The position numbers and the translations under genes are program-made. The notes beneath the pieces were generated by a model, which saw nothing but the letters and a program-made list of their open reading frames with translations, did no database searches and was not told the origin of the DNA. Source: Candidatus Methylomirabilales bacterium (GTDB lineage: Bacteria; Methylomirabilota; Methylomirabilia; Methylomirabilales; CSP1-5). From it: 21,102 nt of DNA. Positions 806 through 21,102 of the stretch are shown here, piece after piece. The DNA lies in the NCBI GenBank assembly GCA_046758505.1, contig JBHIAH010000045.1, forward strand, positions 1 to 21,102, in the 5' to 3' direction. The first letter of the stretch is position 1. Each line of letters begins with the position of its first letter.

Positions 806-1120
806 ATGACTATCCGGGTCTCGTTCATGGGGGTGATGAGGACAGTGACCCGCGAGACAGATGTCGGACTGTCTGCCGCGCCTGGCGTCACGCTCCGCGA
901 AGTCCTTGACAGCCTGGAGAGGCGGTACGGACCAGAATTCGGCCGTCGGGTGTTCCGCTCGCAGGTACCGCCCCGCCCCCTGCAGATGCACACCCGGATT
1001 TTCGTCAACGGGAACCTGACGGACGAGGAAAAGCTGGATGAGCCCCTGCCGGTTGACGGCGGCGAGGCCGGGTGCCCAGAGGTCTTGATCTACCTCATGC
1101 CAGCTGCAACGGGTGGATGA
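806..1120 (+). CDS. MoaD/ThiS-family ubiquitin-like sulfur carrier protein
   Basis: 104 aa. Beta-grasp pattern (IRVSFMG..R, TLREVLDSL..RYG, IFVNG) and a C-terminal di-glycine (MPAATGG). Confidence 0.88.
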   Translation: MTIRVSFMGVMRTVTRETDVGLSAAPGVTLREVLDSLERRYGPEFGRRVFRSQVPPRPLQMHTRIFVNGNLTDEEKLDEPLPVDGGEAGCPEVLIYLMPAATGG

Positions 1121-1131
1121 CAGGAGGAGCC

Positions 1132-4316: not shown

Positions 4317-4331
4317 ACGGGGAGGCCGCCC

Positions 4332-6022: not shown

Positions 6023-6165
6023 GGGGGCGCCACGACGCTCGCGACCATTCAGGTTTCGGCGCCTGGTCCGTGACTTGAGGGGCCCAGCGCACTTTTTTCG
6101 AGGACAACAAGGTGTTGCATGGAATGGAGATCATGGCCACGCACGTGCTCTTGGCCTCCCGGTAG

Positions 6166-6990
6166 ATGTCCTGCGGCGCTCGACGCAACCTGGAGGCGAA
6201 CGGGCTCACGCTGGCGCTGTTCGAGTGGGGGCGGGCGGAGGCCCCGCCCCTCCTCTTACTGCACTCGCTTGCAGCTCATAGCCATTGGTGGGACTGGGCC
6301 GCGTCACTCTGGGCAGGCCGGCGACGCGTAATTGCGCTCGACTTCCGGGGCCACGGTGCCAGCGCTCACGCGGTTCCCGCCGTGTACGCGTTTGACGACT
6401 ACGCCGCCGACACGCTGGCGGCGCTCGACGCTCTCGGCCTCGCCCATCCGGTGGTCGTGGGGCACTCCATGGGCGCGTATGTTGCTGCCTACGTGGCCTC
6501 CCTCCACCCAGAGCGCGTCCGGGCACTGGTCATCGCCGATATGCTGACGGGGTGGACCCCGGAGCAGGCAGAGGGGGCGAAACGCCAGGCCGCTCGCCCG
6601 GCACCCCAGTTCGCGAACTGGGCGGAAGCGAGAGATCGCTTCAAGTTCCAGCCGCCGGCAACCCGCGCCCCCGGCGACCGCATCCGGCACCTGGCCGAGG
6701 CGAGTGTCCAGCAGACGGCGCCGGGCGTGTGGCAGCTTGCTTTCGACCGGTCGGTGTTTCTGCACCCGCCGGTCAATCCCTGGCCGTTCCTCCCCGCCGT
6801 CGTGTGCCCCACGCTGGTGATTCACGGGGAGGGAAGCACCATCATGGACCGGCGGGCCGCTGAGCGCGTGGCGGCTGCGGTCGGGCGCGGGAGCGTGGTC
6901 ACCCTTACGGGAACCTTCCATCACCTCATGCTGGACGACCCGGCCGGCTTTGTCGCGGTTGTTGACGGGTGGTTGACCGCTGCTCACTAA
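6166..6990 (+). CDS. Alpha/beta-fold hydrolase
   Basis: LLLLHS oxyanion motif, DFRGHGAS, nucleophile elbow GHSMG, PTLVIHGE.S and catalytic His region FHHLMLDDP. Confidence 0.92.
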   Translation: MSCGARRNLEANGLTLALFEWGRAEAPPLLLLHSLAAHSHWWDWAASLWAGRRRVIALDFRGHGASAHAVPAVYAFDDYAADTLAALDALGLAHPVVVGHSMGAYVAAYVASLHPERVRALVIADMLTGWTPEQAEGAKRQAARPAPQFANWAEARDRFKFQPPATRAPGDRIRHLAEASVQQTAPGVWQLAFDRSVFLHPPVNPWPFLPAVVCPTLVIHGEGSTIMDRRAAERVAAAVGRGSVVTLTGTFHHLMLDDPAGFVAVVDGWLTAAH

Positions 6991-7109: not shown

Positions 7110-9500
7110 ATGATCAACGTCAATAAGCTGTTCCGCCGACTCTCCATCCGGTCCAAGCTGGTCATCGCCTTCTGTCTCTTCGGGGTGGTCCCCGTGTCGG
7201 TGGTGGGCGGGTATGGCGCCTTCCACTCGTTCTGGCTGCTGAACGACGCTGTCCAGGAGGGCCTGAAGGCCGGGGTCGCGATGAAGGCCGAGGAGATCCA
7301 GCGCCTCCTCGACCGGGTGAAAGGGGACGTCCTCTTCCTGAGCCGTCTGCCCACCCTTCAGGCTCTCGTCAACCTGAAGCCGGAAGCCCACGAGGAACGG
7401 CGGCGTCTGCTCGCCCGCCTGGGCGAGGAATTTCTCTCTTTCTCTCGCTCCCACCCGGTCTACTACCAGGTCCGCTACATCGATGAGCGCGGGAGAGAAG
7501 CCGTCCGGGCCGATTTCGACGGGCAGGGTCACCATCTGGTGCCGCCCGACCAACTTCAACACAAAGGAGATCGTTACTATTTCAGGGAGGCCATGGCGAC
7601 ACCTCCCGGAGCCATCTATGTCTCCCCCATGGACCTCAACATCGAGTGGGGGGCCGTGGAACTCCCCCGGAAGCCGGTCGTCCGCTACGCCGTCCCCCTT
7701 CGGAGCGCCAGGGAGGAGCCGCGAGGGATCGTGATTCTCAACATCTATGCCTCCCGCATCCTGAGTCACGTCCTGGCCCTGGGGGAAAAGGGAGAGGTGT
7801 CCCTGGCCAGTTCGACGGGCTTCTACCTCTTGAAGTCCAATTGGGTGGGCGAGAGCCGCACCTCCTCAGGTGCTGACTCTCTTCCTTTCCCCTCCTGGTT
7901 GGCCTCTTACTCGGAGCAACTTCGCCCCGAGGAGTTCTCGGATGGCCTGCCTGACGGGGCGGTGATGGAGGACTACCCTTCAGACCTGGCCTCCGCCATC
8001 TTCTCGGGGGAGATCGGGACCGCTGTGGAGCCTGGCCTCCGTGGCCGGATCGTGGCGTTTGCCCCGATCTTCCCTCACCTAGACCGCCAGGAGGAGTTCT
8101 GGGTGGCGGTTCACGCGTACCGGAAGTTAGAGGTGCTCTCCTCCCTGCGGGCCCTCCAGTTCCTCGTGCTGCTGCTGGGCGGAGCAGTCCTCGTCGTGGC
8201 TCTCGTGGCGGGCGTTGCCGCCGCCCGGCATTTTACCCGCCCGATCACTGCCTTGATCAGAGGCGCCGAGGCCGTCGCTGCAGGGGACTTCGATCGCCCC
8301 ATCCGGGTCGAGACCAACGACGAGCTGGAGGACCTGAGCCATCAGTTCACTCAGATGGCCACCCGCCTGAAGGAGCACGAGCGACAGCTCAGGGAGGCGC
8401 GGGGCCGGGCCGAGCGAAGGGCCCAGGAGACACAGGCCCTGAACCGTATCGGGATGGAGGTGCTGACGCTTCTCTCCCTCCCCGAGATCCTCCAGCTCGT
8501 GGTGGACAAGGCGCGGGAGCTCCTCAAGGGAGATCTGGCCATCCTCTGCCTGGACGAGTCTGACCACGGGCTCCGGTTGGGCGCCGTGAGCGGATCAGCT
8601 GAGGCACTCCAGTTCCACCCCGGGGATCTCATCCCGGCCCTCACATGCGACAGGGTCAGCTGCCAGGAGGCTCGGTGCCCGGTTGTCTCTGGCGCGGCGT
8701 TCGGGAGCCATGTAGGAGTCGTGATGAGGAGTGAAGAACGGGTGGTGGGTTACCTCTGCGTGGGCCACCACGAGACCCGGCCGGTGGGCTCCGACGAGCT
8801 GGAATTCCTCTCCGGCCTCGCCAACCAGGCTACGATCGCGATCGAGAAAGCCCGTCTCCACCGAGAGGTAAGGGAGCTGGCGAGGCTTGAGGAGCGGGAA
8901 CGGATCGGCCAGGATCTTCACGATGGGATTATCCAGTCCATCTACGCCACGGGCCTCGGCCTCGAGGAGTGCCTGAAGCTCGTCGGCGGGGTGCCACAGG
9001 AAGTGGGCCCGAAGCTCATGGAAGCGATTCAGAGCCTCAACGTCGTGATCCGCGATGTGAGGAACTATGTGGTGGGCCTCCAGCCCGAGGAGCTTCATGG
9101 CCGCGGGTTGAGCGGTGCCCTGGCCGATCTCAGCCGAGGCCTGGTTCTCAACGCCCTGCTCAACGCTGAGCTCGAGGTGGAGCCCGGGACTGACGAGGCC
9201 CTCAGCCCCGACCAAGCCGCCAACCTCTTCCAGATCTCTCGGGAGGCGCTGACGAACGTGGTGAAGCACGCGGGCGCCTCTCAGGTCATCCTGACCCTGC
9301 GGAGGGCGGACGGCGTGGTCTGTCTCGCGGTGGAGGACGACGGCGCGGGGTTCGATCCCGACCTTTGGGGAGGCGGGGGCCAGGGATTGCGCAACATGGG
9401 GGAGCGGGCGCGACGCCTGGGCGGGTCGCTCAGCGTCGAGAGCGCGCCAGGCCGCGGGACACGGATCAGGGTGGAGATCCCGCTGGCGGAGCCCGCATGA
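7110..9500 (+). CDS. Membrane sensor histidine kinase (TM-dCache-TM-HAMP-GAF-HisKA_3-HATPase), DevS/NarX-type transmitter
   Basis: Two TM segments flank a Cache-like region (LQHKGDRYYF, YVSPMDLNIE.G...P.KPVVRYAVP). HAMP (TRPI..L...AE.VAAGDF...I.VET.DELEDL...F.QMA). GAF ending LANQATIAIEKARL. H-box ERERIGQDLHDGIIQ. N/G boxes EALTNVVKHAGA, DDGAGFD, GQGLRNM, PGRGTRI. Confidence 0.95.
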   Translation: MINVNKLFRRLSIRSKLVIAFCLFGVVPVSVVGGYGAFHSFWLLNDAVQEGLKAGVAMKAEEIQRLLDRVKGDVLFLSRLPTLQALVNLKPEAHEERRRLLARLGEEFLSFSRSHPVYYQVRYIDERGREAVRADFDGQGHHLVPPDQLQHKGDRYYFREAMATPPGAIYVSPMDLNIEWGAVELPRKPVVRYAVPLRSAREEPRGIVILNIYASRILSHVLALGEKGEVSLASSTGFYLLKSNWVGESRTSSGADSLPFPSWLASYSEQLRPEEFSDGLPDGAVMEDYPSDLASAIFSGEIGTAVEPGLRGRIVAFAPIFPHLDRQEEFWVAVHAYRKLEVLSSLRALQFLVLLLGGAVLVVALVAGVAAARHFTRPITALIRGAEAVAAGDFDRPIRVETNDELEDLSHQFTQMATRLKEHERQLREARGRAERRAQETQALNRIGMEVLTLLSLPEILQLVVDKARELLKGDLAILCLDESDHGLRLGAVSGSAEALQFHPGDLIPALTCDRVSCQEARCPVVSGAAFGSHVGVVMRSEERVVGYLCVGHHETRPVGSDELEFLSGLANQATIAIEKARLHREVRELARLEERERIGQDLHDGIIQSIYATGLGLEECLKLVGGVPQEVGPKLMEAIQSLNVVIRDVRNYVVGLQPEELHGRGLSGALADLSRGLVLNALLNAELEVEPGTDEALSPDQAANLFQISREALTNVVKHAGASQVILTLRRADGVVCLAVEDDGAGFDPDLWGGGGQGLRNMGERARRLGGSLSVESAPGRGTRIRVEIPLAEPA

Positions 9501-10153
9501 AGAATCGGAAGATTCCCGTTTTGCTGGTGGACGACCACGAGGTCGTCCGTGTCGGCCTTCGCTCGCTCTTGAGCCGAGAGCCTGGAATCGAGGTGGTCGG
9601 CGAGGCGGGAAGCGCTGCCGACGCAGTGGCCCAGGCCGATCGGCTGCGGCCTCGCGTGGTGATCATGGACGTGAGGCTCCCGGACCGGAGCGGGGTCGAG
9701 GCCTGCCGGGAGATCCGGTCGGCGGACCGCGAGATCCAGATCATCATGCTGACCTCCTACGCGGATGATGAGGCGGTATTCTCCTCCGTTATGGCCGGGG
9801 CCTCAGGGTACCTCCTCAAGCAGATCCGCGGACAGGAGCTGGTACGCGCCATCGAGACCGTGGCGGGGGGGCAATCCCTTCTCGATCCCGCCGTGACCCA
9901 GAAGGTCCTGGACCGCGTGAAGCAGCTCGCCTCAAGCTCGCAGCCCGACGAGATCGCCGCGCTGTCGGCCCAGGAGCGCAAGGTGCTTGCCCTCGTAGCG
10001 GACGGGAAGACGAACAAGGAAATCGCCGCCGCCCTTGGGCTCAGCGACAAGACGGTGAAGAACTACCTCTCTCACATATTCGAGAAGCTCAACCTCTCGC
10101 GCCGGGCCGAGGCCGCCGCCTACTTCGCCCGCCGTCGCTCCCTCTCGCCCTGA
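9497..10153 (+). CDS. NarL/DevR(DosR)-family response regulator (REC + LuxR-type HTH)
   Basis: ATG 9497 overlaps the kinase stop (ATGA). REC motifs LLVDDHEVVRVGL, MDVRLPD.SGVEACR, MLTSY.DDEA, GASGYLLKQIRG, which are very DevR-like. HTH LSAQERKVL.LVADGKTNKEIA..LGLSDKTVKNYLS.IFEKL. Confidence 0.95.
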   Translation: MKNRKIPVLLVDDHEVVRVGLRSLLSREPGIEVVGEAGSAADAVAQADRLRPRVVIMDVRLPDRSGVEACREIRSADREIQIIMLTSYADDEAVFSSVMAGASGYLLKQIRGQELVRAIETVAGGQSLLDPAVTQKVLDRVKQLASSSQPDEIAALSAQERKVLALVADGKTNKEIAAALGLSDKTVKNYLSHIFEKLNLSRRAEAAAYFARRRSLSP

Positions 10154-10250
10154 CCTGTTTCGAGAAGAACTGAATCTCGGGACCGGGCGACTCGGCCTGG
10201 CCTTCTCCACCCTGTGCCAGAAGGTTAGCGTGAGGGGGATCGGCTTGTCC

Positions 10251-10342
10251 CCGGAGGGCCATCTGGCCCTATTCCCTTCAGGGCCGAAATACTTGAACTG
10301 GCCCCCCTTCCGGCACTTTTCTTGGCTGTCGCCGTCGGTCGA
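10251..10342 (+). promoter_or_regulatory. Operator/promoter element of the idr-like operon with a DosR-type palindrome (copy 1 of a duplicated element)
   Basis: Perfect inverted repeat AGGGCCA-TC-TGGCCCT (10255-10270), fitting GGGNCNNNNGNCCC. Then CAGGGCC (10279), CGGCACTTTT (10311-10320) and GCCGTCGGTCGA (10331-10342). The same blocks recur at 17525-17614. Confidence 0.7.
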
Positions 10343-10430
10343 CAATGGGCTTATGAAGCGGCCCGTCGCGGTGGGGGAAGAGCAAGTGAACTTTGAGCTC
10401 TCTCGATAGACATCCGGAGGAGGGGAAGGG

Positions 10431-11549
10431 ATGAAAGGCGTCAGAGTGCGGGTATTCGCGTCCATGGTCGTCGCCCTCTCCCTCGTGGTCGGGTCCTCTG
10501 ATAAGGCTTTTTCAGGAGAAGAGCTTGCCCCCTTGCCTAAGCCGCCAAAGGTGAAGGAGTCCCGAGCCAAACTCGGGATGTATCTCTTCTTCGACGAAAG
10601 GATCTCCGGGGATGGCGGGATCAGCTGCGCTACCTGTCACGACCCGAGCAAGGGGTGGGCGAACAACCAGAAGAATGACGAGGAGCTTTCAGACGCTTAC
10701 CCCGGTTCCAAGTACTTTCGGAACGCCAAGTCGCCTGTCAATGTGGTCTTTGCCGAGACGGTGTATTGGGATGGGCGCCTTCCTGGAAAGTCGATGCTTC
10801 AAGTTCACGTAAGGGACCATCTCACGGAGACTCACTTTCTGAACATGGACGGGAGGCTGATGCTGGAGCGGATCAAGCAGATCTCTCTGTACGTCAAGAT
10901 GTTCAAGAAGGCATGGAACGCGGAGCCTTCGTTCGGGAAGATCAGGAACTCGATCAGGGAATTCGAGAAGACCCTGGTGTCCACGAACGTTCCCTTCGAC
11001 AGATTCCTCAAGGGGGACAGAACGGCCCTGTCCCGCAAGGCGAAGCGGGGGGTCGAGCTCTTCAAAGGGAAGGCTCGCTGCCTCCGGTGCCACAACGGGA
11101 CGATGCTCTCCGATTACAAGCCTTATAACATCGGTGTTCCTGAGAACCTCAAGGTCTGGCGGGATCCCATGAGGCATTTCACGTTGCGATCGTTCCTGCT
11201 CGGGATGGGGGTTCCTGGCTTTGAGCGGGCCGAGCGTGATGTGGGGTACTACGCTGTCAGCAAGAAGAAGGAAGACATCGGAAAGTTCGTGACCCCGTCC
11301 CTGAGAGAGGTCTCCCGGACGGCTCCCTATATGCATAACGGGATGCTCAGCACCTTGGAAGAGGTTATCGAGTTCCACGCCAAGGGTGTTGGCCCGGACA
11401 TTGAGCCGGTGGCGCTTTCGAAAAGAGAGATCAATGACTTGGTGGAGTTCCTGAAGAGTCTGAGCGGAGACGAAATCAAGGCGGCGAGCCCTGCCGATAT
11501 GCCGGCGGACTACGCCCTTATCGAAGACTGGTACAACACCAGAAACTAG
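10431..11549 (+). CDS. idrP: Di-heme cytochrome c peroxidase/MauG-family protein, IdrP-type (first copy)
   Basis: GGAGG RBS and N-terminal signal peptide. LFFDERISGDG.ISCATCHDP, YWDGR, second heme CLRCH, F.TPSLREV..TAPYMHNG. Adjacent to idrB/idrA. P1 versus P2 numbering not assigned. Confidence 0.88.
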   Translation: MKGVRVRVFASMVVALSLVVGSSDKAFSGEELAPLPKPPKVKESRAKLGMYLFFDERISGDGGISCATCHDPSKGWANNQKNDEELSDAYPGSKYFRNAKSPVNVVFAETVYWDGRLPGKSMLQVHVRDHLTETHFLNMDGRLMLERIKQISLYVKMFKKAWNAEPSFGKIRNSIREFEKTLVSTNVPFDRFLKGDRTALSRKAKRGVELFKGKARCLRCHNGTMLSDYKPYNIGVPENLKVWRDPMRHFTLRSFLLGMGVPGFERAERDVGYYAVSKKKEDIGKFVTPSLREVSRTAPYMHNGMLSTLEEVIEFHAKGVGPDIEPVALSKREINDLVEFLKSLSGDEIKAASPADMPADYALIEDWYNTRN

Positions 11550-11591
11550 GGCACGAGGAACTATGGGGCGAACTCCAAAGGAGAAGTGGAT

Positions 11592-12746
11592 ATGACGAGG
11601 TGTAGGACGTTCCTGATTCTCCTTGCTGCCTTCGTGCTAGCCACTGGATCCACTGTGGGGAGGTCGGCGGTTGCTGGCGGGAGCGAGGTTCCTGAGCTCG
11701 GGCCCCTCGGTCCTGCCCCGATCCCTCCCGACAACCCCATGACCCCTGCCAAGGTCGAGCTGGGGAAGATGCTCTTCTTCGACACCAGGCTCACAGGAGA
11801 TGCGAGCCTGAGCTGTGCAACCTGCCACGATCCCGCGCTCGGGTGGGGGGACGGTGCGGATATCGGCCGGGGTTACCCTGGCACCTCCCACTGGCGCAAC
11901 ATCCAGACGGTCATCAACACCGCGTACTACAACAAGCTCTTCTGGGCGGGAAGCAGCCGAAGCCTTGAAGCCCAGGCAGAGACAGCCAACAGGGGTGCGG
12001 TGGCCGGGAACGGCGAGCGGGACATGATGGAGGCGCGTCTCTATCAGGTTCCCGAATATCGAAAGATGTTCAGAGAGGTGTTTGGGGATGAATGGCCTCT
12101 GCTCAAGAATGCGTGGCGGGCCATCGCCGCCTTCGAGAGGACCCTTGTTCAACGAGATACCCCGTTTGACCGGTTCATGCGGGGGGACAAAGGCGCCCTC
12201 TCGGCCGAGGCCAAGCAGGGGTTGAAGCTCTTCAAGGGCAAGGGCGGGTGCATCCAGTGCCACAACGGGCCTTTCCTGACCGACCAGAAGTACCACAACT
12301 TGGGGGTACCCGAGAATCCTGCCTTCGCCGAAGACGCCAAGAAGCAGATCACCTTCCGCTACGAGCAGTATGCCAAGGGAGTGCCCGAGGAGATCTACCG
12401 AACCACCAAGACCGACCTCGGCCTCTTCTACCAGAGCAAGAGAAAAGAGGACATGTCCAAGTTTAGAACGCCCACCCTGCGGTACCTGGCGTACACGCCC
12501 CCCTACATGCACAACGGGGCCTTCTTCACCTTGGAGGAGGTCATCGACTTTTACGACCAGGGCGGGGGTGAGGATCAGGCCCTGAAGAACCACGGCATCG
12601 TCACCAAGAGCAAGAAGTTGAAGAAGCTCAAGCTCAGCGACGAGGAGAAGGAAGCCCTGGTGGCCTTCCTGGAGAGCCTCTCAGGGGAGGAGATTGTCAT
12701 CGAGCCTCCCAAGCTGCCCGACTACGCGGTCATGATCACGAAGTAG
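11592..12746 (+). CDS. idrP: Di-heme cytochrome c peroxidase/MauG-family protein, IdrP-type (second copy)
   Basis: AAGGAG RBS 8 nt before ATG 11592 (the track uses GTG 11586). Signal peptide, CATCH and CIQCH heme motifs. The segment HWRNIQTVINTAYY.KLFWAGS..SLE.QA..A..G.VAGNGE.DMMEARL is recalled as characteristic of IdrP. Also TPPYMHNG. Confidence 0.9.
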   Translation: MTRCRTFLILLAAFVLATGSTVGRSAVAGGSEVPELGPLGPAPIPPDNPMTPAKVELGKMLFFDTRLTGDASLSCATCHDPALGWGDGADIGRGYPGTSHWRNIQTVINTAYYNKLFWAGSSRSLEAQAETANRGAVAGNGERDMMEARLYQVPEYRKMFREVFGDEWPLLKNAWRAIAAFERTLVQRDTPFDRFMRGDKGALSAEAKQGLKLFKGKGGCIQCHNGPFLTDQKYHNLGVPENPAFAEDAKKQITFRYEQYAKGVPEEIYRTTKTDLGLFYQSKRKEDMSKFRTPTLRYLAYTPPYMHNGAFFTLEEVIDFYDQGGGEDQALKNHGIVTKSKKLKKLKLSDEEKEALVAFLESLSGEEIVIEPPKLPDYAVMITK

Positions 12747-12759
12747 AGGGAGGCCAAAC

Positions 12760-13320
12760 ATGACGAGGGGTGACAGCATGGAAAAGAAAGGTGGGGAGTT
12801 CCTCTGTCCGTCCAGAAGGCAGTTCCTCATCGCAGGGGGCGGGGTGACAGCTACTGTTTTGCTCTCCAGCGTCTTCCCGGGCACTGCCCTCGGGGCCCTC
12901 AAGGTCCGGCTCACAAAGTACCCGGAGAAGAAGATCGTCACGTTAGGTAAGCTCAAGACCGATGTCCTGACGACGTTCAGGTATCCCTATGATGACTTTC
13001 ACTCGAACAGTTTCGTCGTCAAATTGGGGTTTCCAGCCGGAGGGGGCGTCGGGCCCAACCACGATATCGTGGCCTTTAACGCCCTCTGCACCCACATGGG
13101 AGGCCCGTTGATGGGCGCCTACAAGGCGCGGGATAAGGTCATGGGTCCATGCCCGTTCCATCTGAGCACCTTTGACCTGACCAGGCACGGCATGGTGGCG
13201 GCAGGTCACGCCACCGCGCCTCTGCCACAGGTTGTTCTCGAGGTCAGGCGGCAGGACATCTATGCCACGGGGATCGTGGGGCTGATCTATGGCTACAGCG
13301 ATAACCTGGCGAAAGCCTAG
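12760..13320 (+). CDS. idrB: Rieske [2Fe-2S] small subunit of iodate reductase/arsenite oxidase family, Tat-exported (IdrB-like)
   Basis: GGAGG RBS (alternative ATG 12778). Tat motif SRRQFL plus a hydrophobic stretch. Rieske boxes CTHMGG and CPFH lack the disulfide Cys pair of many AioB. Also GGGVGP..DIVAFN and GHAT..LPQVVLE, GLIYGY. Confidence 0.88.
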   Translation: MTRGDSMEKKGGEFLCPSRRQFLIAGGGVTATVLLSSVFPGTALGALKVRLTKYPEKKIVTLGKLKTDVLTTFRYPYDDFHSNSFVVKLGFPAGGGVGPNHDIVAFNALCTHMGGPLMGAYKARDKVMGPCPFHLSTFDLTRHGMVAAGHATAPLPQVVLEVRRQDIYATGIVGLIYGYSDNLAKA

Positions 13321-13334
13321 CGCCGTGCCGATAA

Positions 13335-13530
13335 CCGTCGCACGACCCACTTCGTGGGTGCCCGCCAGGGATGGCCTTCGGCCAATCATCATCTGGCGGT
13401 CGTCGCCCATCCTCAACGTACGGGGAGTACGCCTCCGGTGGGCCGGGGTCCCCACGAGGCGGAGCCGAGTGGGGTGCTGGACACCTCCCTGCGTCCTTGA
13501 TCTGCTCGGTTCTCCGCACGGCGCCAGTGG
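13335..13530. repeat. Multi-hairpin intergenic element (REP/MITE-like or structured RNA) between idrB and idrA
   Basis: Serial hairpins ACCCAC-TTC-GTGGGT, TGGCC-TTC-GGCCA, CGTAC-GGGGA-GTACG and CCCCAC..GGC-GGA-GCC..GTGGGG in a 279-bp gap with no credible ORF. Boundaries are approximate. Confidence 0.5.
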
Positions 13531-13599
13531 CGTCCTACCAAAATTGGACACAAACGTGGAGATGTTGGGCGAACAAGCAAGCTGAAGAGGTGTAAGACT

Positions 13600-16272
13600 A
13601 TGGCGACACCGTATTACATCGCTGAAGGTCGGGTTCCTCTGCCTCCCAAGGATGCCGATGTCTTGACCATATGCTGCGACTACTGTGTGGTGGCCTGCGG
13701 GTACAAAGTGTACCGGTGGCCGGTGGGGAGGGAAGGGGGGCCGAGAGCTGGTGAGAATGCCCTGCGGGTTGACTTTCCCGTGGCGGTCAATACCGGGAAG
13801 TGGGTGAGCCCCAACATGCATAACGTCGTGATGCATGAGGGCCGGCCCCACAACGTCATCGTGATCCCCGATGCGGATTCGAAGGTGGTGAACGTCGGGG
13901 GGACCCACAGCATCCGGGGGGGGTGCATCGCGCAGAAATGCTACAACCCCCAGAAGCCTACCGCCGACAGGCTCCAACATCCCCTGCTCAGGGTCGGTGG
14001 CTCTCTCCAGATGGTCTCGTGGGGTGCCGCGTTGGACATCATGGCCGAGGTCTCTAAGCACGTCATCAAGAATTATGGGCCCCACGCCTGGGCCATGAAG
14101 ATGTTCAGCTACCAGTTCTTTGAGAACACATACGCCCTGACCAAGATCGCCTTCCGGCACATCAAGACCCCGGCTTGGGCCTCGCACTGGACCGGAACCG
14201 CCAACACCAATTCAACCCCGGGATTCAGGGATGTGGGGTTCGACAACTTCGGCCCGGCCTACGAAGACTTCAAGAACGCCGATGTCCTGTTCTGCTCGGG
14301 CTCGGACCCCTTTGAGACCAAGACGGTGCTCTTCACCGCCTGGATCCTGCCAGGGATCTTGGAGCACGGCCTCAAGGTGATCATGGCGAACCCGCGGAAG
14401 ACCACCGGCGCGGCCTTTTCCGAACAGCACGGCGGCCTCTTCCTCCAGGTCGAGCCGGGGAGCGATACCGTCCTTCACATGGCCATCTCCAGGGTCATCC
14501 TCGAGAACGGCTGGGAGGATCGGGACTGGATTGCCAAGTACACCTCCAACAAGTGGGAAACCGATTCCGGATTCGGGCAGGGAACACGGAACACTCCGTG
14601 GCAGTGGAGGACGACCTGGGGCAAGCTCGAGGGCCGAAGCTTCGAGGATTACAAGAAGTGGCTCCTCGCGCAGAAGGAATCCACCCTGGACTTCGCGGAA
14701 AAGGAAACCGGCGTGCCCCGGCAGAAGATCATCAAGGCCGCGGAGATGATGGCGAAGCCCGTCAATGGCAAGCGCCCCAAGACGACCATCGGCATTGAGA
14801 AGGGAAACTACTGGTCGAACAACTATCTCAATACGGTCTCGATTGCGACCCTAGCCCTTCTCTGCGGGACCGGGAACCGGCCCGGTCAGATGATCGGGAG
14901 GTTTGGTGGCCACCAGCGGGGAGGCAACACCGCGGGGCGATATCCCAACGAGAGGTCGCCGGAGAAGTATCCCGGCCGGAGGAAGAGGAAGATTGATCTC
15001 GACCGATGGGTTCAGACCGGAAACGTGAGGTTTGCCTGGGTCATCGGGACCACCTGGATCCAGTCCATGGCGGCGGGGGCCGAGCTGCGTAAGGTCTTTG
15101 ACGCCATGACCCGACGCAACCCTTACCAGATCGAAGGCTTCGATACGGCGCGGGCCATCGAGACGCTCAAGAAACGGGTCGATAGCGGCGGGATGGTGGT
15201 GGTCGAACAGGACATCTACCTGCGGGATCCCATCGGGTCCAAGTATGCCGATATCGTTCTGCCGGCCGCGACCTGGGGTGAAGAGGATTTCACCCGGTGC
15301 AACGGAGAGAGAAGACTCCGCCTCTACCAGAAGTTCTATGATCCCCCGGGCGATGCGAAGCCCGACTGGTGGATCGCGGCCCAGTTTGCCAAGCGGATGG
15401 GCTTCGAGGGCTTTGACTGGAAGGATTCCAATGAGGTCTTCGAGGAGGGCGCACGGTTCAGGAGGGGAAGCCGCGTCAACTACCATCCCCTGGTCTGGCT
15501 CGCCAAGAAGAATGGGATGCGGGGCCACGACCTCTTGCAGACATACGGGACCCACGGCATCCAGTGCCCCATCCGGTACGAGGATGGGAACCTCGTTGGG
15601 ACCGTGAGACTCCACGACTCCACCCTCAAGCTTCCCGAGACCGGTCCCCAGGGGCCGACGGTCTGGCGGAAATGGCTCACTGCTTCCAAATCTCAGTCCG
15701 GGAAGTTCAACTGGATGCGGTCGCCATGGGACCTCTTCGCTGACTACTATGACTGGCTGAAGCCCAGGGGAGACGAGCTCTGGCTGAGCAATGTCCGGAT
15801 CAACGAGACCTGGCAGACCATGTTCGACGACATAAGGAAGCCGTACATCGCCCAGCGCTGGCCCGAGATCTTCGTAGAGATCCACCCGGACGATGCCCGG
15901 CCCCGGGGCATCGAGAGCGGGGACGCGGTCAGCCTCACCAATGACAGGATTCCCGTCCAGACGGGAGGGTTCTACGGGGTCATGGCGGATGACGCGAGCT
16001 TCACAGGCCTGATGAAGAACGGCCATATCAAGATGACCAGAGCGTCCATTTCCGCGGTGGCGATCGTCACCCCGGCGGTGAAGAAAGGGGTCGTGGCAGC
16101 CCTGAAGTTCGACATGACCAACTCGGTCAATGACCTCATTCCGCGGGTAACCGACCCCTTCAACAACCACTATCGCTTCATGCTGGCGGTGGCAAAGGTC
16201 AAGAAGATCGGGGAATCGCCGTACAAGAGGTCGCTCAATGCCATGAGCTTTGCGCGGAGAGATATCGTGTAG
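13600..16272 (+). CDS. idrA: Molybdopterin oxidoreductase large subunit of the AioA/IdrA family, IdrA (iodate reductase)-like
   Basis: VPLPPKDA..T..CDYCVVACGYKVYRWP and HSIRGG give the [3Fe-4S] pattern CxxCxxxC..S. IdrA-type segments: WAMK..SYQFFENTYA.TK, KWE.DSG.G.GTRNT.WQWRTTWG, EKGNYWSNNY.N, GGHQRGG (AioA has GGHQEG), SPEKYPGRRK, C-terminus R.IV. No signal peptide. Two CcP genes and a Rieske gene are adjacent. Confidence 0.88.
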   Translation: MATPYYIAEGRVPLPPKDADVLTICCDYCVVACGYKVYRWPVGREGGPRAGENALRVDFPVAVNTGKWVSPNMHNVVMHEGRPHNVIVIPDADSKVVNVGGTHSIRGGCIAQKCYNPQKPTADRLQHPLLRVGGSLQMVSWGAALDIMAEVSKHVIKNYGPHAWAMKMFSYQFFENTYALTKIAFRHIKTPAWASHWTGTANTNSTPGFRDVGFDNFGPAYEDFKNADVLFCSGSDPFETKTVLFTAWILPGILEHGLKVIMANPRKTTGAAFSEQHGGLFLQVEPGSDTVLHMAISRVILENGWEDRDWIAKYTSNKWETDSGFGQGTRNTPWQWRTTWGKLEGRSFEDYKKWLLAQKESTLDFAEKETGVPRQKIIKAAEMMAKPVNGKRPKTTIGIEKGNYWSNNYLNTVSIATLALLCGTGNRPGQMIGRFGGHQRGGNTAGRYPNERSPEKYPGRRKRKIDLDRWVQTGNVRFAWVIGTTWIQSMAAGAELRKVFDAMTRRNPYQIEGFDTARAIETLKKRVDSGGMVVVEQDIYLRDPIGSKYADIVLPAATWGEEDFTRCNGERRLRLYQKFYDPPGDAKPDWWIAAQFAKRMGFEGFDWKDSNEVFEEGARFRRGSRVNYHPLVWLAKKNGMRGHDLLQTYGTHGIQCPIRYEDGNLVGTVRLHDSTLKLPETGPQGPTVWRKWLTASKSQSGKFNWMRSPWDLFADYYDWLKPRGDELWLSNVRINETWQTMFDDIRKPYIAQRWPEIFVEIHPDDARPRGIESGDAVSLTNDRIPVQTGGFYGVMADDASFTGLMKNGHIKMTRASISAVAIVTPAVKKGVVAALKFDMTNSVNDLIPRVTDPFNNHYRFMLAVAKVKKIGESPYKRSLNAMSFARRDIV

Positions 16273-16302
16273 GGCGGATCATTCATCATTCATGAGCGCG
16301 CC

Positions 16303-16390
16303 TGAGACCCTCGCCCCGACGCTCTCCCTCTTGAGGGAGACCTTTTGAGACCCTCGCCCCCAGCGGGGGAGAGGGGAGGGTGAGGGGGGG
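16303..16390. repeat. Pair of REP-like palindromic repeats downstream of idrA, including a terminator-like hairpin
   Basis: 15-bp direct repeat TGAGACCCTCGCCCC (16303-16317, 16346-16360). Hairpin TCTCCCTC-TT-GAGGGAGA (16323-16340) followed by CCTTTT. The second unit CCCTCGCCCC..GGGGAGAGGG GAGGGTGAGGGG resembles the widespread CCCTCACCC..CCCTCTCCC..GGGAGAGGG repeat. Confidence 0.6.
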
Positions 16391-16418
16391 CTGAGGTGTC
16401 TCGCGGGAGGATGAGGGA

Positions 16419-17267
16419 ATGGCAAAGCAAGAGCGCGGAATCGGAGGCGTTGCGGCGAGGGAGACCTGGATCCCGCCTGCTGCAAGGTCCCTTCAGGTGG
16501 ACGAGCCGGAGTCACTGAGGAGGCTCAAGGCCGCAATGGCGCCAGTGCAGTTCAAGGTGGCCATCACCGGCACGGAGCGCGGAGCAGGCGTGAGCACTGT
16601 CGCGGTGAACCTTGCCTTGGCCCTGGCTCGGGCGGATCGAGACGGTCACGCCGGCGCGGTGCAAAAGAAGCCCCAAATGGGGATCCTCCATCTGGGAGTG
16701 GCCCCCAAGCCGGCTCTCGACCCTGCGGGGATGAAGGTTCTCTCCCTGGAGACCCTTCTCGGCGGTCCGCTCGCCCTGCAAACGGGGGTCAGCACGGACT
16801 GGCGGGTAGTGCAGGAGTCCCTCACCCGGGTCGATTGGAAGGGAATTGATTTCCTCCTAGTCGAGCTGCCTTTCGGGATCGGGATCGTGGGAGACTTTTC
16901 AGAACTCTTCCCTGCGATGGATGCCGCCTGCATTGTCACGTTGCCCACCGAAGGCGCGCGGGATCGTATCAGGAGAGCCTGGAAGTTCTTCGACGCTAGC
17001 AGCATCCCGGTCATTGGGCTGGTGTCGAACATGGAAGGACGCTTCAAGGGTGAGGAGGTGGAGGACCTGGGTCAGACTTTTGGCATCCCCCTCCGCGTGG
17101 GGCTCCCCCATGAGCCCGCCCTGGCCACTATCCAGGCCGGTGCCGCTCCCTACATCCTGGCAAACAGGGAGGCAAAGGTCAGCAGGGCCTTCTTCGACCT
17201 CGCGGATGACCTGGTGGACTATCTTTTCTGGCTTCGCGACGAGGGCGATCAGGAGGAAGAATTCTAA
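16419..17267 (+). CDS. Mrp/NBP35 (ApbC)-like P-loop protein with degenerate Walker A and no CxxC motif
   Basis: KVAITGTERGAGVSTVAVNLALALA, VDWKGIDFLLVELPFGIG, AACIVTLP and IPVIGLVSNM align with the Mrp motifs SGKGGVGKSTVAVNLA, WG.LDYL.ID.PPGTGD, G.V.VTTP and G.VENM. Confidence 0.75.
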   Translation: MAKQERGIGGVAARETWIPPAARSLQVDEPESLRRLKAAMAPVQFKVAITGTERGAGVSTVAVNLALALARADRDGHAGAVQKKPQMGILHLGVAPKPALDPAGMKVLSLETLLGGPLALQTGVSTDWRVVQESLTRVDWKGIDFLLVELPFGIGIVGDFSELFPAMDAACIVTLPTEGARDRIRRAWKFFDASSIPVIGLVSNMEGRFKGEEVEDLGQTFGIPLRVGLPHEPALATIQAGAAPYILANREAKVSRAFFDLADDLVDYLFWLRDEGDQEEEF

Positions 17268-17524
17268 CCCGCCATAACTTCATTCTGCTGATTTCCCTAG
17301 CCCCCGCTACGCCGGAATTGCGCCTAAGGTATTTCACGCGATTCACATGTACGACCTGATCTTCTCGCCAGCAACAGAGCGGGTGTCTCCGGTCATTGAC
17401 ACAGAGGGCAGATGCAAATCAGCGTTTCTCCGGTCAAGGTGATCCCCAGTCCCCAGGAACTCCTCTCGCCGCTTCCTGCGCATGATCGGTTGCTCCCCAT
17501 CGGTGAGCTAAAGGAGGGGGGGTT

Positions 17525-17614
17525 CCGGAAGCCATTTGGCCCTATTACCCCAGGGCCAAAAAAAACTGTCCGTGTTCCCTGTTCGGCACTTTTGTCCACT
17601 CTGCCGTTGATCGA
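17525..17614 (+). promoter_or_regulatory. Operator/promoter element (copy 2 of the idr promoter element)
   Basis: CCGGAAGCCATTTGGCCCTATTACCCCAGGGCCAAA...CGGCACTTTT (17584-17593)...GCCGTTGATCGA. It contains the inverted repeat TTTGGCCCT-N8-AGGGCCAAA. The TGGCCCTATT-to-CGGCACTTTT offset is 47 nt in both copies. Confidence 0.7.
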
Positions 17615-17629
17615 TCATCTGTACTAGTT

Positions 17630-18013
17630 ATGGAAGGGTCTGTCGCGGTGGCAGTGGTGGATGGCAATGCCGGAGCGCGCCAGGCGCTGGTGCGGCAGCT
17701 CGGGCAGGTGCATGGGGTCTCGGTGGTGGGGGAAGCGGAGGATCCTGAGGAGGCCCTGAGGATGGTCCGGGACCAGCGGCCCCAGGTGGTGGTGATGGAC
17801 GTCCGGCGGATGGAGCCTAAGGGGCCCGAGTTCGTGGGGCGGCTGGTGGCTGACGCCCCCGGCTTGGCTGTCGTGATCCTCACCGCGTACCTCACCGAGC
17901 GGGAGCGCTACGACCTGGTGGGGGCCGGTGCCCGCGCCATCCTCCTCAAGGAGATCGACTCCGGGGCACTCGTCCGGACGATCCGCACAGTCGCCGCCCC
18001 GACTTGGGGCTAG
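17630..18013 (+). CDS. Stand-alone receiver (REC) domain protein of NarL type, no DNA-binding domain
   Basis: 127 aa. VAVVDG, VVGEA, RPQVVVMDV (phospho-Asp), VILT, GA...LLKE. Ends before any HTH. Confidence 0.85.
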   Translation: MEGSVAVAVVDGNAGARQALVRQLGQVHGVSVVGEAEDPEEALRMVRDQRPQVVVMDVRRMEPKGPEFVGRLVADAPGLAVVILTAYLTERERYDLVGAGARAILLKEIDSGALVRTIRTVAAPTWG

Positions 18014-18032
18014 CGAAAGGGGGGTCAGAGGC

Positions 18033-18773
18033 GTGAGGTATCTCAGGGCGTTTATGCTGGCGGCTCTGCTGCTCGCCCCATCGGTGGCCGTCGCCTACGA
18101 GGTGGTGCCGGTGGCCAACGGGGGGGCGATCGTCGGCCGCGTGAAGTTCAAGGGCGCTCCCCCTCCTAACCGGAGGATCCTGATCACGAAGAACTTCGAC
18201 GTGTGCGGGAGGGGAGAGAGGGAGATCCCGGAGGTGGTCGTCTCAGCGGAAGGCGGTCTCCAAGAGACTGTGGTGTATATCGAGAAGATCCGCAAGGGGA
18301 AGGCGTGGGCGAACGCCGACGGGGGAGAGTACCTGCTCAACCAGAAGGGATGTCGGTTTATCCCGTACTTCAGAGTGGTTCCGAAGGGGCAGACGATGAT
18401 CATTCAGAACAGCGACCCGGTGCTCCACAACATCCATGTGCGCGAGCTCATCGGGAGGGCCCGGCGGACCCTTTTCAATTTCGGGCAACCCCGGCAGGGG
18501 CAGCGGGTCCCTCAGAAGATCCGCCCCATCCGGAGCAGTCGCATCAAGATTGAGTGCGAGGCGCACAATTTCATGCACGCCTGGATGTTTGCTGCCAAGA
18601 GCCCGTACTACGCCGTCACGAGCGTGGACGGCTCGTTTCGAATCGACCAGGTCCCCCCGGGAACCTATACCGTCAAGGCCTGGCATCCCGTCCTGGGAAC
18701 CCAGAAGCGGACGGTAACCGTTCCACCAAATGGAGGGGCGGAGGTCTCTTATGAATTTTCGGCTGAGAAATGA
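18033..18773 (+). CDS. Secreted cupredoxin-like protein with carboxypeptidase-regulatory-like domain
   Basis: GTG 18033 after a G-rich RBS. Signal peptide MRYLRAFMLAALLLAPSVAVA. Motifs NQKGCRF.P, NSDPVLHNIH and CEAHNFMHAW (type-1 Cu-like His..Cys-x2-His-x2-Met), GSFRIDQVPPGTYTVKAWHP.LG. Confidence 0.8.
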   Translation: MRYLRAFMLAALLLAPSVAVAYEVVPVANGGAIVGRVKFKGAPPPNRRILITKNFDVCGRGEREIPEVVVSAEGGLQETVVYIEKIRKGKAWANADGGEYLLNQKGCRFIPYFRVVPKGQTMIIQNSDPVLHNIHVRELIGRARRTLFNFGQPRQGQRVPQKIRPIRSSRIKIECEAHNFMHAWMFAAKSPYYAVTSVDGSFRIDQVPPGTYTVKAWHPVLGTQKRTVTVPPNGGAEVSYEFSAEK

Positions 18774-18925
18774 ACCGTGCCATGTACACGTTCATGATCG
18801 GCCTGACGGGGCGCCCTCTGCCGTCTTACGCCGACGTGTTGACCGCTGAACAGGCTTGGGCTCTCGCCTACTACGTTGAGGAGGTCATCAAAAAGGGGCA
18901 GAGCGGGGTGAGTGGGGTTTTGTGA
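18770..18925 (+). pseudogene. 51-aa ORF resembling only the C-terminal half of a class I cytochrome c (remnant or heme-less mini-protein)
   Basis: MNRAMYTFMIGLTGRPLPSYADVLTAEQAWALAYYVEEVIKKGQSGVSGVL resembles TF..GL.GTPMPSY...L...E.W.L..YV of c-type cytochromes. No CxxCH, and Leu at the axial Met position. ATGA overlap upstream, TGATG overlap downstream. Not in the ORF track. Confidence 0.55.
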
Positions 18926-19965
18926 TGGGTCTCCAGCCTGCATTCGCGCGTAGGGTCAGGCTGCTGCTCAGATCACTCCGACGGTGCTCAACCTTCACGA
19001 GACCGGTCGGGACCGTGGCGGGAGTGCTCATGCTCTGGACGACCTCCTGGGCAGGCCCGGTTGCCGCCGCCGCTCCCGCGGAGGTTCTCAAGTCCTACCT
19101 GAAGGCCATCTACGCCCGGGATTACTCAGGGGCGTACGATTGGATCTCTCAGGAGGACCGGAAGCTCAAGACCAAAGAGGAATACCTGCGTGAGAACGCC
19201 GCCTTCTCAGGGGCGGCCCTCGAAATGGCCCAGGCTCTCGCCTCACTGATTCGGTTTGAGGATCTCAAGACGGAGATTGAGCAGCACCACGCCACGATCA
19301 CGTTCAGAGCGGTTGTCCCGAACGTGAACGACCCCGCCGTCGACGACCTCCTTCTGGGGTTCAACGAAGAGCGCCTAGCCCTCCTCTCTCCTGGCGACCG
19401 CCGGGCGAGGTCGGATCAGCTTCGGGAGATGGCGAGGACACGGCGCCTGCCGGTGATCGAGGGGAACGAGCAATGGGAGCTGATCCGCGACGACGGATCG
19501 TGGCGGGTCTTTCTCAACTGGGCGGGAGCGGTGGCGGTCCACTTCGAGGCGGTGACGAAGAGCGGACTGCCGTGGCAATTCGTCCCGGTCCAGCCCGTGG
19601 TTCGCGCCACCCCGGGGGAGACCCTCCAGACCTACTACCGCGTGAAGAACCTCTCGGACCGGGAGATCACGGCCAAGTCCCGCCACGTCCTCAATCCCCC
19701 CGAGGAGACGGGATACCTCGAGGTTATCTCCTGCTTCTGCCTTCTCGAGCAGACCCTGGCTGCGGGAGAGGAGCAGAGGTTGCCGGTCGTGTTTCGGGTG
19801 AGCTATGACATCCCGGAGTCGGTCCAAGAGATCCGGGTTCGCTACGAGTTCTACCCGATCGGGCAATTTCCGTGGCGACAGCCTCTTGGGGCTACGACGG
19901 AGAGGTCCGGGGGTCACTTTGAAGTCCACCGGCCCGAGCAGTTCCAAGCGGAACGACGCGAGTGA
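18925..19965 (+). CDS. CtaG/Cox11 copper-delivery domain fused to an N-terminal domain of unknown function
   Basis: C-terminal half has the Cox11 pattern V.FEA....LPWQF.PVQ..V...PGET....YRVKNLSDREI......H...P......YL..ISCFCL.EQTL.AGEE..LPVVFRV...IP......V.YEFY. The N-terminal ~190 aa carry a signal-like hydrophobic stretch and YLKAIYARDYSGAYDWIS. Start uncertain (18922, 18925 or about 19015-19030). Confidence 0.8.
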   Translation: MGLQPAFARRVRLLLRSLRRCSTFTRPVGTVAGVLMLWTTSWAGPVAAAAPAEVLKSYLKAIYARDYSGAYDWISQEDRKLKTKEEYLRENAAFSGAALEMAQALASLIRFEDLKTEIEQHHATITFRAVVPNVNDPAVDDLLLGFNEERLALLSPGDRRARSDQLREMARTRRLPVIEGNEQWELIRDDGSWRVFLNWAGAVAVHFEAVTKSGLPWQFVPVQPVVRATPGETLQTYYRVKNLSDREITAKSRHVLNPPEETGYLEVISCFCLLEQTLAAGEEQRLPVVFRVSYDIPESVQEIRVRYEFYPIGQFPWRQPLGATTERSGGHFEVHRPEQFQAERRE

Positions 19966-21102
19966 GCGGCCCCGGTCGGGCGCGGATGGTCTCGTTCTTC
20001 ACTGCCCTGTCCCTCCTTTTGGTCTCTTCCCCCCTTATGGCCCAGGAGGTGGAGTACCGGGGAGGCATTCTGGCCGATCCGCGGACGGTCATCTGGATAG
20101 TGGCCGAGCTCCATCTGATGTTCGGGGCCTTCGTCCTCGGGGTTCCCATCTTCGCCGTCATCGTCGAGATCATCGGGGCGCGGACGAAGGACCCGAGATA
20201 CGACCGGATGGCGCGGGATTTCACCCGGCTCCTCTCAGCGGCCTTTGCGACCACAGCGGCCCTGGGGGGCCTCCTGGCCTTCACCCTCTTCTCCATTTAC
20301 CCGCGGTTCATGGGCTACCTGACGGGCGTCTTCCACAAGACGTTCTATGTCTATGGCCTCCTTTTCTTTGCGGAGACCTTCTGCCTCTATCTCTATTACT
20401 ACTCCTGGGACCGGCTACAGCATCGGAAGGGCCTCCACATCGGGCTCGGAGTTCTTCTGAATCTCGTCGGCACGGCCATCATGATGATCTCCAACTCCTG
20501 GGCGAGTTTCATGATGAGCCCGGTGGGGATCGAGGAGGAGACGGGGAAGTTCGTCGGGACGACCCTCCAGGCCGTGATGAATCCCCTCTGGACGCCGTTG
20601 AACCTCCACCGGATCTTGGGCAACGTGGTCTTCGGGGGGCTGGTGGCGGGCGCATACGCGGCCATCAAGTTCATCGGGGCGAAGACCGAACAGGAGCGGG
20701 CCCACTACGACTGGATGGGATACACGGGCAACTTTGTCGCCATCTCCGCCCTCATCTTCCTTCCCTTTGCCGGCTACTACCTGGGGCGCGAGGTCTACAG
20801 CGCCAGCCCCATCATGGGCAACAACATGATGGGCGGCACGTTTTCCTGGACCTTCATCATCCAGGCGCTCCAGGTCGGCGTGCTCTTTATCATGAGCAAC
20901 TACTATCTCTGGCTCGGGATGGGGCGCATCCCCGGGGCGGAGCGGTATCAGAAATACGTGAAGTACATCAATCTGGTTCTGCTCCTTGCCTTCGCCGTCT
21001 GGTTGACGCCCCACAATCTTCCCCTGAGCTCTGAGGAGCAGATCCTCGTGGGGGGGCAGTATCATCCGGTGCTGAAGTATCTGGGGCTGATGTCAGCCAA
21101 GA
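19962..21102 (+). CDS. Cytochrome bd-like oxidase subunit I (CydA-like, Nitrospira/anammox type); 3' truncated by the window edge
   Basis: Read manually because it is absent from the ORF track. GTG 19962 overlaps the upstream stop (alternative ATG 19986) and the frame is open to the end. IWIVAELHLMFGAFVLGVPIFAVIVE, DPRYDRMA, FFAETF.LY.YYY.WD, NSWASFMMSP, NPLW.PLNLHR.LGN, ERAHYDWMGY.GN, PFAGYYLGREVY, VWLTPH, YHPVL..LG.M.AK. Confidence 0.88.
   Translation, partial: MSGPGRARMVSFFTALSLLLVSSPLMAQEVEYRGGILADPRTVIWIVAELHLMFGAFVLGVPIFAVIVEIIGARTKDPRYDRMARDFTRLLSAAFATTAALGGLLAFTLFSIYPRFMGYLTGVFHKTFYVYGLLFFAETFCLYLYYYSWDRLQHRKGLHIGLGVLLNLVGTAIMMISNSWASFMMSPVGIEEETGKFVGTTLQAVMNPLWTPLNLHRILGNVVFGGLVAGAYAAIKFIGAKTEQERAHYDWMGYTGNFVAISALIFLPFAGYYLGREVYSASPIMGNNMMGGTFSWTFIIQALQVGVLFIMSNYYLWLGMGRIPGAERYQKYVKYINLVLLLAFAVWLTPHNLPLSSEEQILVGGQYHPVLKYLGLMSAK

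Follow-up and report, generated by a model that had tools for sequence, protein, structure and literature searches.

The 21,102-nucleotide window analysed here is the whole of contig C45 (JBHIAH010000045.1) of a Candidatus Methylomirabilales bacterium, whose genome (G000) comprises 2.99 Mb and is 96.8% complete. All on the + strand, it holds genes for a sensor kinase and a DevR-like regulator, a cluster of the iodate reductase (idr) type, and an operon running from a stand-alone receiver (REC) gene to a gene for a cytochrome bd-like protein. The two operons carry the same three-box promoter element and are very likely co-regulated. We propose, with chances that we put slightly below even, that the locus places an idrABP-type periplasmic oxyanion reductase and a bd-like module of the Nitrospira/anammox type under one DevR-like switch, with the module acting as a membrane-to-periplasm electron conduit. 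Both halves, idr and the bd-like module, were known before; the regulator, the promoter element and the altered enzyme are the additions made here. The gene set named in the original prediction, that is, the kinase-regulator pair, idrP-idrP-idrB-idrA and REC-cupredoxin-Cox11-bd-like, was recovered in full by open reading frame (ORF) and profile analysis. Contigs (C), genomes (G) and loci (L) carry our own numbers, and papers are cited for their accessible text.

A promoter element common to both operons

The element consists of an 18-bp palindrome, a second box at 24-25 bp and a GGCACTT box. Copy 1 (10254-10318, + strand) lies ahead of the idr cluster, with the palindrome at 10254-10271, box 2 from 10279 and the GGCACTT box at 10312-10318; copy 2 (17527-17591, + strand; boxes at 17527, 17551 and 17585) lies ahead of the REC gene (17630-18013, PF00072). 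In a scan with a three-box weight matrix trained on six loci outside the window, the two copies scored 67.6 and 48.4 bits and took the top two ranks in the 2.99 Mb. No other independent genomic site scored above 23.6 bits, the maxima of three shuffled genomes were 15.7-18.0, and the same matrix found nothing comparable at the idr cluster on C17 or at the C12 and nxr loci of G000. Box 1 alone is unspecific, with many genome matches above 13 bits, and the simple palindrome GGCCCT-N8/9-AGGGCC is uninformative (4 sites vs 3 for the control). Among relatives across Methylomirabilota, the element stands behind the regulator or before the REC gene at seven loci (L305, L306, L308, L309, L310, L313 and L024) and, in weaker form, at G006 and L318, and the REC gene is often the first gene behind it. 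The likeness of the two window copies extends into the first REC codons, which suggests that they likely arose by local duplication; a decayed 5' REC-gene remnant of 18 codons (10353-10409, + strand; repeat family D19) follows copy 1. The common promoter element of the original prediction is therefore borne out by its DevR-box geometry, its conservation across relatives and the genome ranks of its two copies.

DevR promoters contain two to four tandem 18-bp boxes in which G5 and C7 are essential (PMC3177182), and in this 18-bp Dev box numbering copy 1 keeps G4, G5, C7 and G12, with C rather than A at position 6. A sigma-70 scan gave no sites vs 1.9 expected, a terminator scan 12 vs 9.7 expected, and an Rfam search no matches at gathering scores. 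A sigma-54 reading of GGCAC was rejected by eye for want of the conserved -12 element of the sigma-54 consensus.

The regulator (9497-10153, + strand) is a NarL/LuxR response regulator of the DevR/DosR type: a receiver plus a LuxR helix-turn-helix nearest DevR, with the recognition helix kept. Its best PDB match is DevR (3C3W, E 1.7e-55), followed by VraR at 9e-41, and the KTVKNY recognition helix is common to DevR and all seven of seven orthologues. The kinase (7110-9500, + strand) is a membrane protein in which Pfam places a periplasmic dCache domain between two transmembrane segments, then HAMP, one GAF, HisKA_3 and HATPase domains; the GAF domain has a Cys pair that occurs in all 10 close orthologues aligned, the window included. 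DevS and DosT have two GAF domains, of which GAF-A binds haem, and no periplasmic sensor. The dCache-HAMP-single-GAF architecture, together with a GAF search that, up to E 1, listed no chain named DevS or DosT, rules out DevS as the identity of the kinase, so that only the regulator half of the predicted DevS/DevR-like pair stands. The only solved relatives of the dCache domain are 2P7J and 3LID (E 3e-7). The latter is listed with phosphate (PMC8534201), a weak hint, by analogy, that the domain may sense an anion. Kinase orthologues occur in 16 of 251 Methylomirabilota genomes.

With the DevSR (DosRS/T) system of M. tuberculosis the window shares a regulator that is nearest DevR among solved structures, a HisKA_3 kinase core and tandem boxes made up of one strong 18-bp palindrome with degenerate neighbours. 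It differs in that the kinase is membrane-bound with dCache, HAMP and one GAF, the palindrome reads GGGCC-N4-GGCCC instead of having the GGGAC half-site, the boxes lie 24-25 bp apart, and the targets are two promoters, not a large regulon. At 11 loci with visible downstream genes the element leads to idr in six, to the module cupredoxin and cytochromes in one, to operons like alternative complex III (ACIII) in three and to an unrelated gene in one, which suggests a respiratory regulator that is often, not always, tied to idr. The kinase-regulator pair and the element precede ACIII-like operons without idr at L306, L308 and L318. The regulon that had been predicted thus holds as far as the common promoter beside a DevR-like regulator is concerned; its breadth does not, there being two promoters only in G000 and orthologues that front other respiratory operons. 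In Roseovarius, idr is induced by iodate and by static growth or low O2 (PMC11445184), a dual induction that a two-input kinase would fit.

An IdrA-type reductase with an altered active-site loop

The reductase cluster has the published order P2-P1-B-A (PMC10989891). It comprises idrP2 (10431-11549) and idrP1 (11586-12746), which encode the first and second of two di-haem proteins of the cytochrome c peroxidase (CCP)/MauG family (PF03150, two CxxCH each), the Rieske subunit IdrB (12760-13320; TIGR02694 above cut-off; twin-arginine motif RRQF at residue 19) and the molybdenum (Mo) bis-pyranopterin guanine dinucleotide subunit IdrA (13600-16272; TIGR02693 above cut-off), all on the + strand. In a FastTree of 59 rows, none of them an experimentally tested IdrA, the Mo subunit falls inside the IdrA clade with support 100, and four AioA-type rows form the outgroup; a search for the tested IdrA of SCT, IR-12 and DN11 had none of them named among the 120 matches listed. 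Iodate reducers have been recognised by a pair of di-haem peroxidase genes beside idrA and idrB (PMC8692401), and these four genes are neighbours in the window. The tree and the neighbours together uphold the predicted Idr-like enzyme. That idr occurs in Methylomirabilota has already been published (PMC10989891). The characterised idr cluster is described as having no quinone oxidoreductase (PMC8692401); inside the window cluster there is neither NapC, as had been noted, nor NrfD.

Arsenite oxidase was considered as an identity and rejected. The likeness to AioBA lies in homologous Mo and Rieske subunits, and the window passes the NCBIfam AioA/AioB cut-offs; its IdrA, however, falls in the IdrA clade outside the AioA-type outgroup and is without the H-N-R-P-A-Y-N-S-E loop, its neighbours are peroxidases, and no aioXSR-type regulator is present. 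Where the IdrA clade has H-D-x-P, the window loop reads H-W-T-G-T. The other IdrA rows, 100 of 100, all have this Asp and this Pro, H-D-x-P being a clade trait seen in this alignment and no published criterion. The altered loop recurs in the second idr copy on C17 (86% identical) and in G006. Its His aligns with AioA H195, and equivalents of AioA H195, R419 and H423, functional residues of that enzyme, are kept. Because the active-site loop is altered the substrate is uncertain, iodate or a related oxyanion being the probable one. Within Methylomirabilota, L011-L015, L024, L310 and L315 form an IdrA subclade of their own, which has the loop H-D-K-P-G-P-G and a G-G-H-Q-R-G-W motif.

Compared with the idrABP1P2 clusters of Pseudomonas sp. 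SCT, Denitromonas sp. IR-12, Roseovarius azorensis and Ca. Methylomirabilis iodofontis, the window shares the order P-P-B-A, a Tat-bearing Rieske protein, two di-haem peroxidases and the lack of a quinol dehydrogenase within the cluster. Its own features are the altered loop, a 280-bp insert between idrB and idrA, an Mrp-like gene, the flanking two-component system with its boxes, the bd-like module and a second idr copy, the tested strains being set apart here by description, not sequence. The Mrp-like gene (16419-17267, + strand), which had gone unmentioned in the original prediction, encodes a degenerate Mrp/NBP35-like P-loop protein (PF10609) and sits between the two blocks; among 341 loci, relatives above 45% identity were found only at the window, C17 and G006 loci, i.e. 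beside an altered-loop IdrA. The 280-bp insert (13321-13599) is hairpin-rich (z -2.3), single copy in the genome, without an Rfam match, and replaced by 15 bp in the C17 copy; it is possibly the scar of a mobile element.

The bd-like membrane module

The bd-like gene (19962-21102, + strand) is open at the contig end. The 3' end of C45 shares a 55-nt overlap with contig C110 of G000, and the join is bridged at 99.99-100% identity by L017 (labelled Candidatus Methylomirabilia), the nearest named locus, which is 99.99% identical to the window across 17.5 kb. The gene can therefore be read as 644 residues from its ATG. It is followed on C110 by genes for a di-haem cytochrome c, a mono-haem cytochrome c, a protein with a di-haem c part plus an EB_dh haem-b (NxrC-like) domain and a second cupredoxin-like protein, and by a 129-residue bd-like fragment. 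Reading beyond position 21102, as had been suggested, thus takes the bd-like gene into C110 and adds three c-type cytochromes and a cupredoxin.

The predicted model of the bd-like protein (mean predicted local distance difference test, pLDDT, 85.7) matches CydA with Z 33.7 and a root-mean-square deviation of 3.3 over 355 aligned residues, and CydB, ActF and PsrC more weakly (Z 16-26), a common fold that in itself says nothing on function. In comparison with the solved bd oxidases 5DOQ/9R2G, the equivalents of H19, E107, H186 and R448 are kept. Those of E99 and E445, which belong to the O2 site, are replaced by Tyr (Tyr122) and Ser (Ser574) in all 47 of 47 aligned rows, the E445 mapping passing through a weak C-terminal alignment. 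CydB (PF02322) gave no matches in G000 at its 96.8% completeness, with the positive control found in 9 of 14 genomes; three haem-copper oxidases are encoded. A canonical cytochrome bd quinol oxidase is ruled out by the missing CydB, the missing Q-loop and the replaced E99 and E445, and the quinol-oxidising role once predicted for the protein would need a site other than the canonical one. What is present, namely a CydA fold of about 14 helices that keeps H19 and has no quinol site, in an operon with c-type cytochromes, corresponds to the OR-N bd-like family as defined by Murali et al. (10.1101/2021.01.16.426971); a Kyte-Doolittle count gave 11 segments, fewer than the helices of the predicted model. 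Our bd-like tree left out the Nitrospira and Kuenenia sequences and yields no N1/N2 assignment.

A bd-like_3/alt_NxrC_2 cluster is kept in Nitrospira, Nitrospina and anammox bacteria, where it has been proposed as an anchor of nitrite oxidoreductase (NXR) and a possible quinone interface (PMC6606698, PMC3578206). The window module resembles this cluster, with its two c-cytochromes and cupredoxin, in being CydA-only, with about 14 long helices after a leader and no Q-loop, followed by di-haem and mono-haem cytochrome, di-haem c plus EB_dh and cupredoxin-like genes. Where the module of NXR loci adjoins NXR, the one in the window adjoins an Idr-type enzyme and has a promoter in common with it. 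A complex prediction for the bd-like protein with the di-haem cytochrome, in which the N-terminal membrane helix of the cytochrome is the part bound, scored 0.73, the best of three controls 0.00; solved pairs reach the mark applied in 116 of 157 cases and mismatched pairs in 2 of 215, counts that are only rough for our own alignments. At least 78% of the contacts recur between runs, and the partner pLDDT is at least 71. The CydA-like protein is thus predicted to bind a membrane-anchored di-haem cytochrome in place of CydB.

The secreted cupredoxin-domain protein (18033-18773, + strand) combines type-1 copper ligands with a beta-sandwich domain. The four ligands, His, Cys, His and Met, occur unchanged in 13 of 13 rows, and the pLDDT of the model is 92.5. 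A sequence search of the PDB matched the beta-sandwich part only, and it was the fold search by Foldseek, with amicyanin, plastocyanin and pseudoazurin as top matches, that settled the cupredoxin identity. The 51-codon ORF behind it (18770-18925, + strand) resembles by eye the C-terminal half of a cytochrome c domain of the C110 cytochrome, lacks CxxCH and is a probable remnant; the relative L309 carries a full cytochrome gene at this position. The Cox11/CtaG-domain protein (18922-19965, + strand; PF04442), with an N-terminal extension, is the only copy in G000. A single non-identical match (L341) among 341 loci indicates a local extra, and Cox11 was therefore rejected as a core member of the module, in which the original prediction had placed it. 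G000 also has, on C12 (L005, L006), a full paralogous module and a short bd-like copy, 42% identical, behind another Mo enzyme.

Linkage of idr and the module across genomes

In the forward direction, 78 non-identical IdrA loci included six with a bd-like gene in the retrieved flank and one more with a stub, many flanks being short. The reverse search started from the best 80 metagenome loci, of which 39 were dropped because they had less than 4.5 kb downstream. In 33 of the remaining 41 (22 of 26 clusters at 90% identity) idrP follows directly after the cytochromes, and Nxr was found in none of the 41; the alphaproteobacterial, idr-linked query biases the count. Within the order of G044 (Alphaproteobacteria; 301 genomes) an IdrA-type gene is present in 20 genomes, OR-N in 25 and both in 19, with the two on one contig no more than 15 kb apart in 17 of the 19. 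OR-N occurs in 6 of the 281 genomes of this order without idr and in none of seven AioA-like genomes, and many genomes of the order have two modules. The pairing also appears in Rokubacteria (L024), Nitrospinota (L020) and G006, its gene orders differ across phyla, and the idr-linked OR-N copies fall in the long and short subgroups, with one in a third. Periplasmic NxrA was not found in five of five idr-module genomes searched, whose completeness was not given, the controls G000 and G051 being positive. The synteny check suggested for idrA and the bd-like block thus found co-occurrence across genomes, and the lack of it, which was to have refuted the original prediction, was not seen. Most idr clusters are without the module, so it is best regarded as accessory. 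A literature search for the pairing of idr with the bd-like module that did not extend to subscription papers, the original SCT work among them, found no description, and the term 'cytochrome bd' does not appear in the accessible portion of PMC8692401.

Proteobacterial clusters with idr and a bd-like gene (L065, L089, L093, L275-L281) also contain HEAT-repeat, cupredoxin, FGE-sulfatase, universal stress protein, radical SAM/SPASM and HemY-like genes, often with a divergent CRP/FNR-like gene, and many have two bd-like modules. The second idr cluster of G000 belongs to a respiratory island (C66 10725-14065 and C17; L002-L004) with a Tat-type NarG/NxrA, its B subunit, a chaperone, a haem subunit, napFHGAB-like genes, ACIII, a ba3-type oxidase and several NarL-type systems. 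Ahead of the C17 idrP lies an FNR-like box that matches the consensus at 8 of 10 positions.

Electron conduit or oxidase

Under the electron-conduit reading, the dCache domain of the kinase would respond to a small anion and its Cys-bearing GAF domain to a redox or O2 signal, and the phosphorylated regulator would bind the three-box elements and turn on both operons. Electrons would then leave the membrane, from the quinone pool at a non-canonical site, through b-haems to c-cytochromes, and might pass by way of the NxrC-like haem-b domain and the cupredoxin to IdrB/IdrP and finally IdrA. The module would feed the reductase as an optional, accessory electron link. It is possible, if rather doubtful, that the OR-N 'bd-like oxidases' of such modules are no oxidases and form instead a general quinone-reactive membrane adaptor for periplasmic molybdoenzymes (NXR, Idr and others), which here would feed an Idr variant with a new substrate under a dedicated anion-plus-redox DevR-type switch.

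Several observations weigh against a conduit to Idr under a DevR-like switch. On the side of regulation, the box spacing of 24-25 bp departs from the 21 bp of M. tuberculosis, and orthologous regulators precede ACIII-like operons (three loci) or an unrelated gene (one locus). As to linkage, a whole-genome search found the module in only 10 of 78 genomes with IdrA relatives, adjacent to idr in seven and with adjacency unseen in three, and 8 of the 41 reverse-search loci have no idrP. The 19 co-occurring genomes of the G044 order are kin, and the order was picked because its centre had both genes, so no p-value is given. Among 251 Methylomirabilota genomes OR-N is found in 142 and IdrA in 17; in 7 of the 17 (two being identical copies) the two genes share a contig and lie no more than about 16 kb apart. 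In G000 itself, the C17 idr cluster, flanked by periplasmic nar/nxr genes and by nap genes, comes without module or element, and the C12 module without idr. With regard to the protein, the H19 equivalent is kept in 46 of 47 aligned relatives and E107 and H186 are kept as well, and the Q-loop quinol-site motif was not found in the alignment to 5DOQ/9R2G. Finally, OR-N enzymes have been classed as probable cytochrome-c-fed O2 reductases (10.1101/2021.01.16.426971), and OR-N1/N2 are treated as a putative O2 reductase, without experimental proof, in PMC12342949 and PMC10839748.

The main alternative makes the module an oxidase, a high-affinity O2 reductase that is fed by cytochrome c and induced together with idr when O2 is low. 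Module and Idr would then be parallel electron outlets under one switch, and the oxidase would also shield the O2-sensitive Idr. Besides the proposals for the OR-N family, the kept H19, E107 and R448 equivalents within a CydA fold (Z 33), the published O2 sensitivity of Idr and its induction at low O2 (PMC11445184), the ACIII-like operons fronted elsewhere by the same regulator, and the copper handling suggested by Cox11 and the cupredoxin are all in its favour. A co-induced oxidase is, however, difficult to reconcile with the loss of the E99 and E445 equivalents in every aligned row, with the conservation of the module in anaerobic anammox bacteria and with a genome that already has three haem-copper oxidases; nor would a generic oxidase be expected to follow idr so closely. 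We regard this alternative as possible but rather unlikely.

The known partners of the module are oxidases, as is AioA, the sister group of IdrA, and the window loop is unlike that of 100 of 100 other IdrA rows. These facts would suit an enzyme running oxidatively, like NXR in Nitrospira, in which the IdrA variant oxidises iodide, hypoiodite or another anion and the module passes the electrons to O2 or quinone. Most module-linked IdrA, however, keep the H-D-T-P loop of the clade with published idr genomes, e.g. Endozoicomonas sp. OPT23, the idr hosts tested in the accessible text of the cited papers all reduce iodate, and both peroxidases are kept, so we consider oxidative operation improbable. 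Somewhat less probable again is that the two blocks have no functional link here, and that mobile respiratory islands have brought idr by rearrangement next to a module that serves periplasmic Nar/Nxr. The decayed remnants at 10353 and 18770 are signs of reshuffling, the phylum has many long-type OR-N copies without idr, and G000, G006 and L024 have periplasmic NxrA-like genes, close by in the latter two; yet both promoter copies keep all three boxes, and the pairing persists where no NxrA was found and in differing gene orders across phyla. The least probable is that the module clears O2 formed by dismutation of HOI, a product of iodate reduction: the SCT model has an O2-yielding Cld-like step (PMC8692401, PMC10989891), but cld is never beside idr and is missing from all but 2 of 145 genomes (PMC8692401), and the only Cld-family gene of G000 lies among haem-synthesis genes on C66, so the O2-scavenger option of the original prediction is left with no local Cld partner.

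Neighbouring genes and genomic context

The remainder of the window holds a separate operon (806-6990) for a MoaD-like protein, an 860-residue Mo enzyme without clear family, a 4Fe-4S subunit, an NrfD-like anchor, a GntR/HutC regulator and an alpha/beta hydrolase, which was not seen next to idr at other loci, the identical copy excepted. The 3' end of an EgtB/SenA-like FGE-sulfatase gene lies at 3-527 and has a paralogue (70%) on C19. Copies of C45, C110 and much of C12 with 99.9-100% identity are present on contigs C36 and C21 of G592, a genome of another order whose RpoB N-terminus is 57% identical to that of G000; no such copy of the C17 island was found in G592. Either shared binning or recent transfer may account for this, and a tetranucleotide composition test of the host bin was ambiguous.

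Implications

The coupling that the original prediction took to be undescribed is so in the literature searched as far as the link to idr is concerned; the module alone is known from nitrite-oxidoreductase loci. Its operon link to Idr in genomes that yielded no NXR constitutes a second, independent context for the module and offers possible hosts in which the roles of oxidase and conduit could be set against each other. Induction of idr by iodate and low O2 has been published, the regulator being unnamed in the accessible text; for that role the window provides a candidate, together with the site to which it is predicted to bind. In some bacteria, the module may be the membrane electron input that Idr has been missing.

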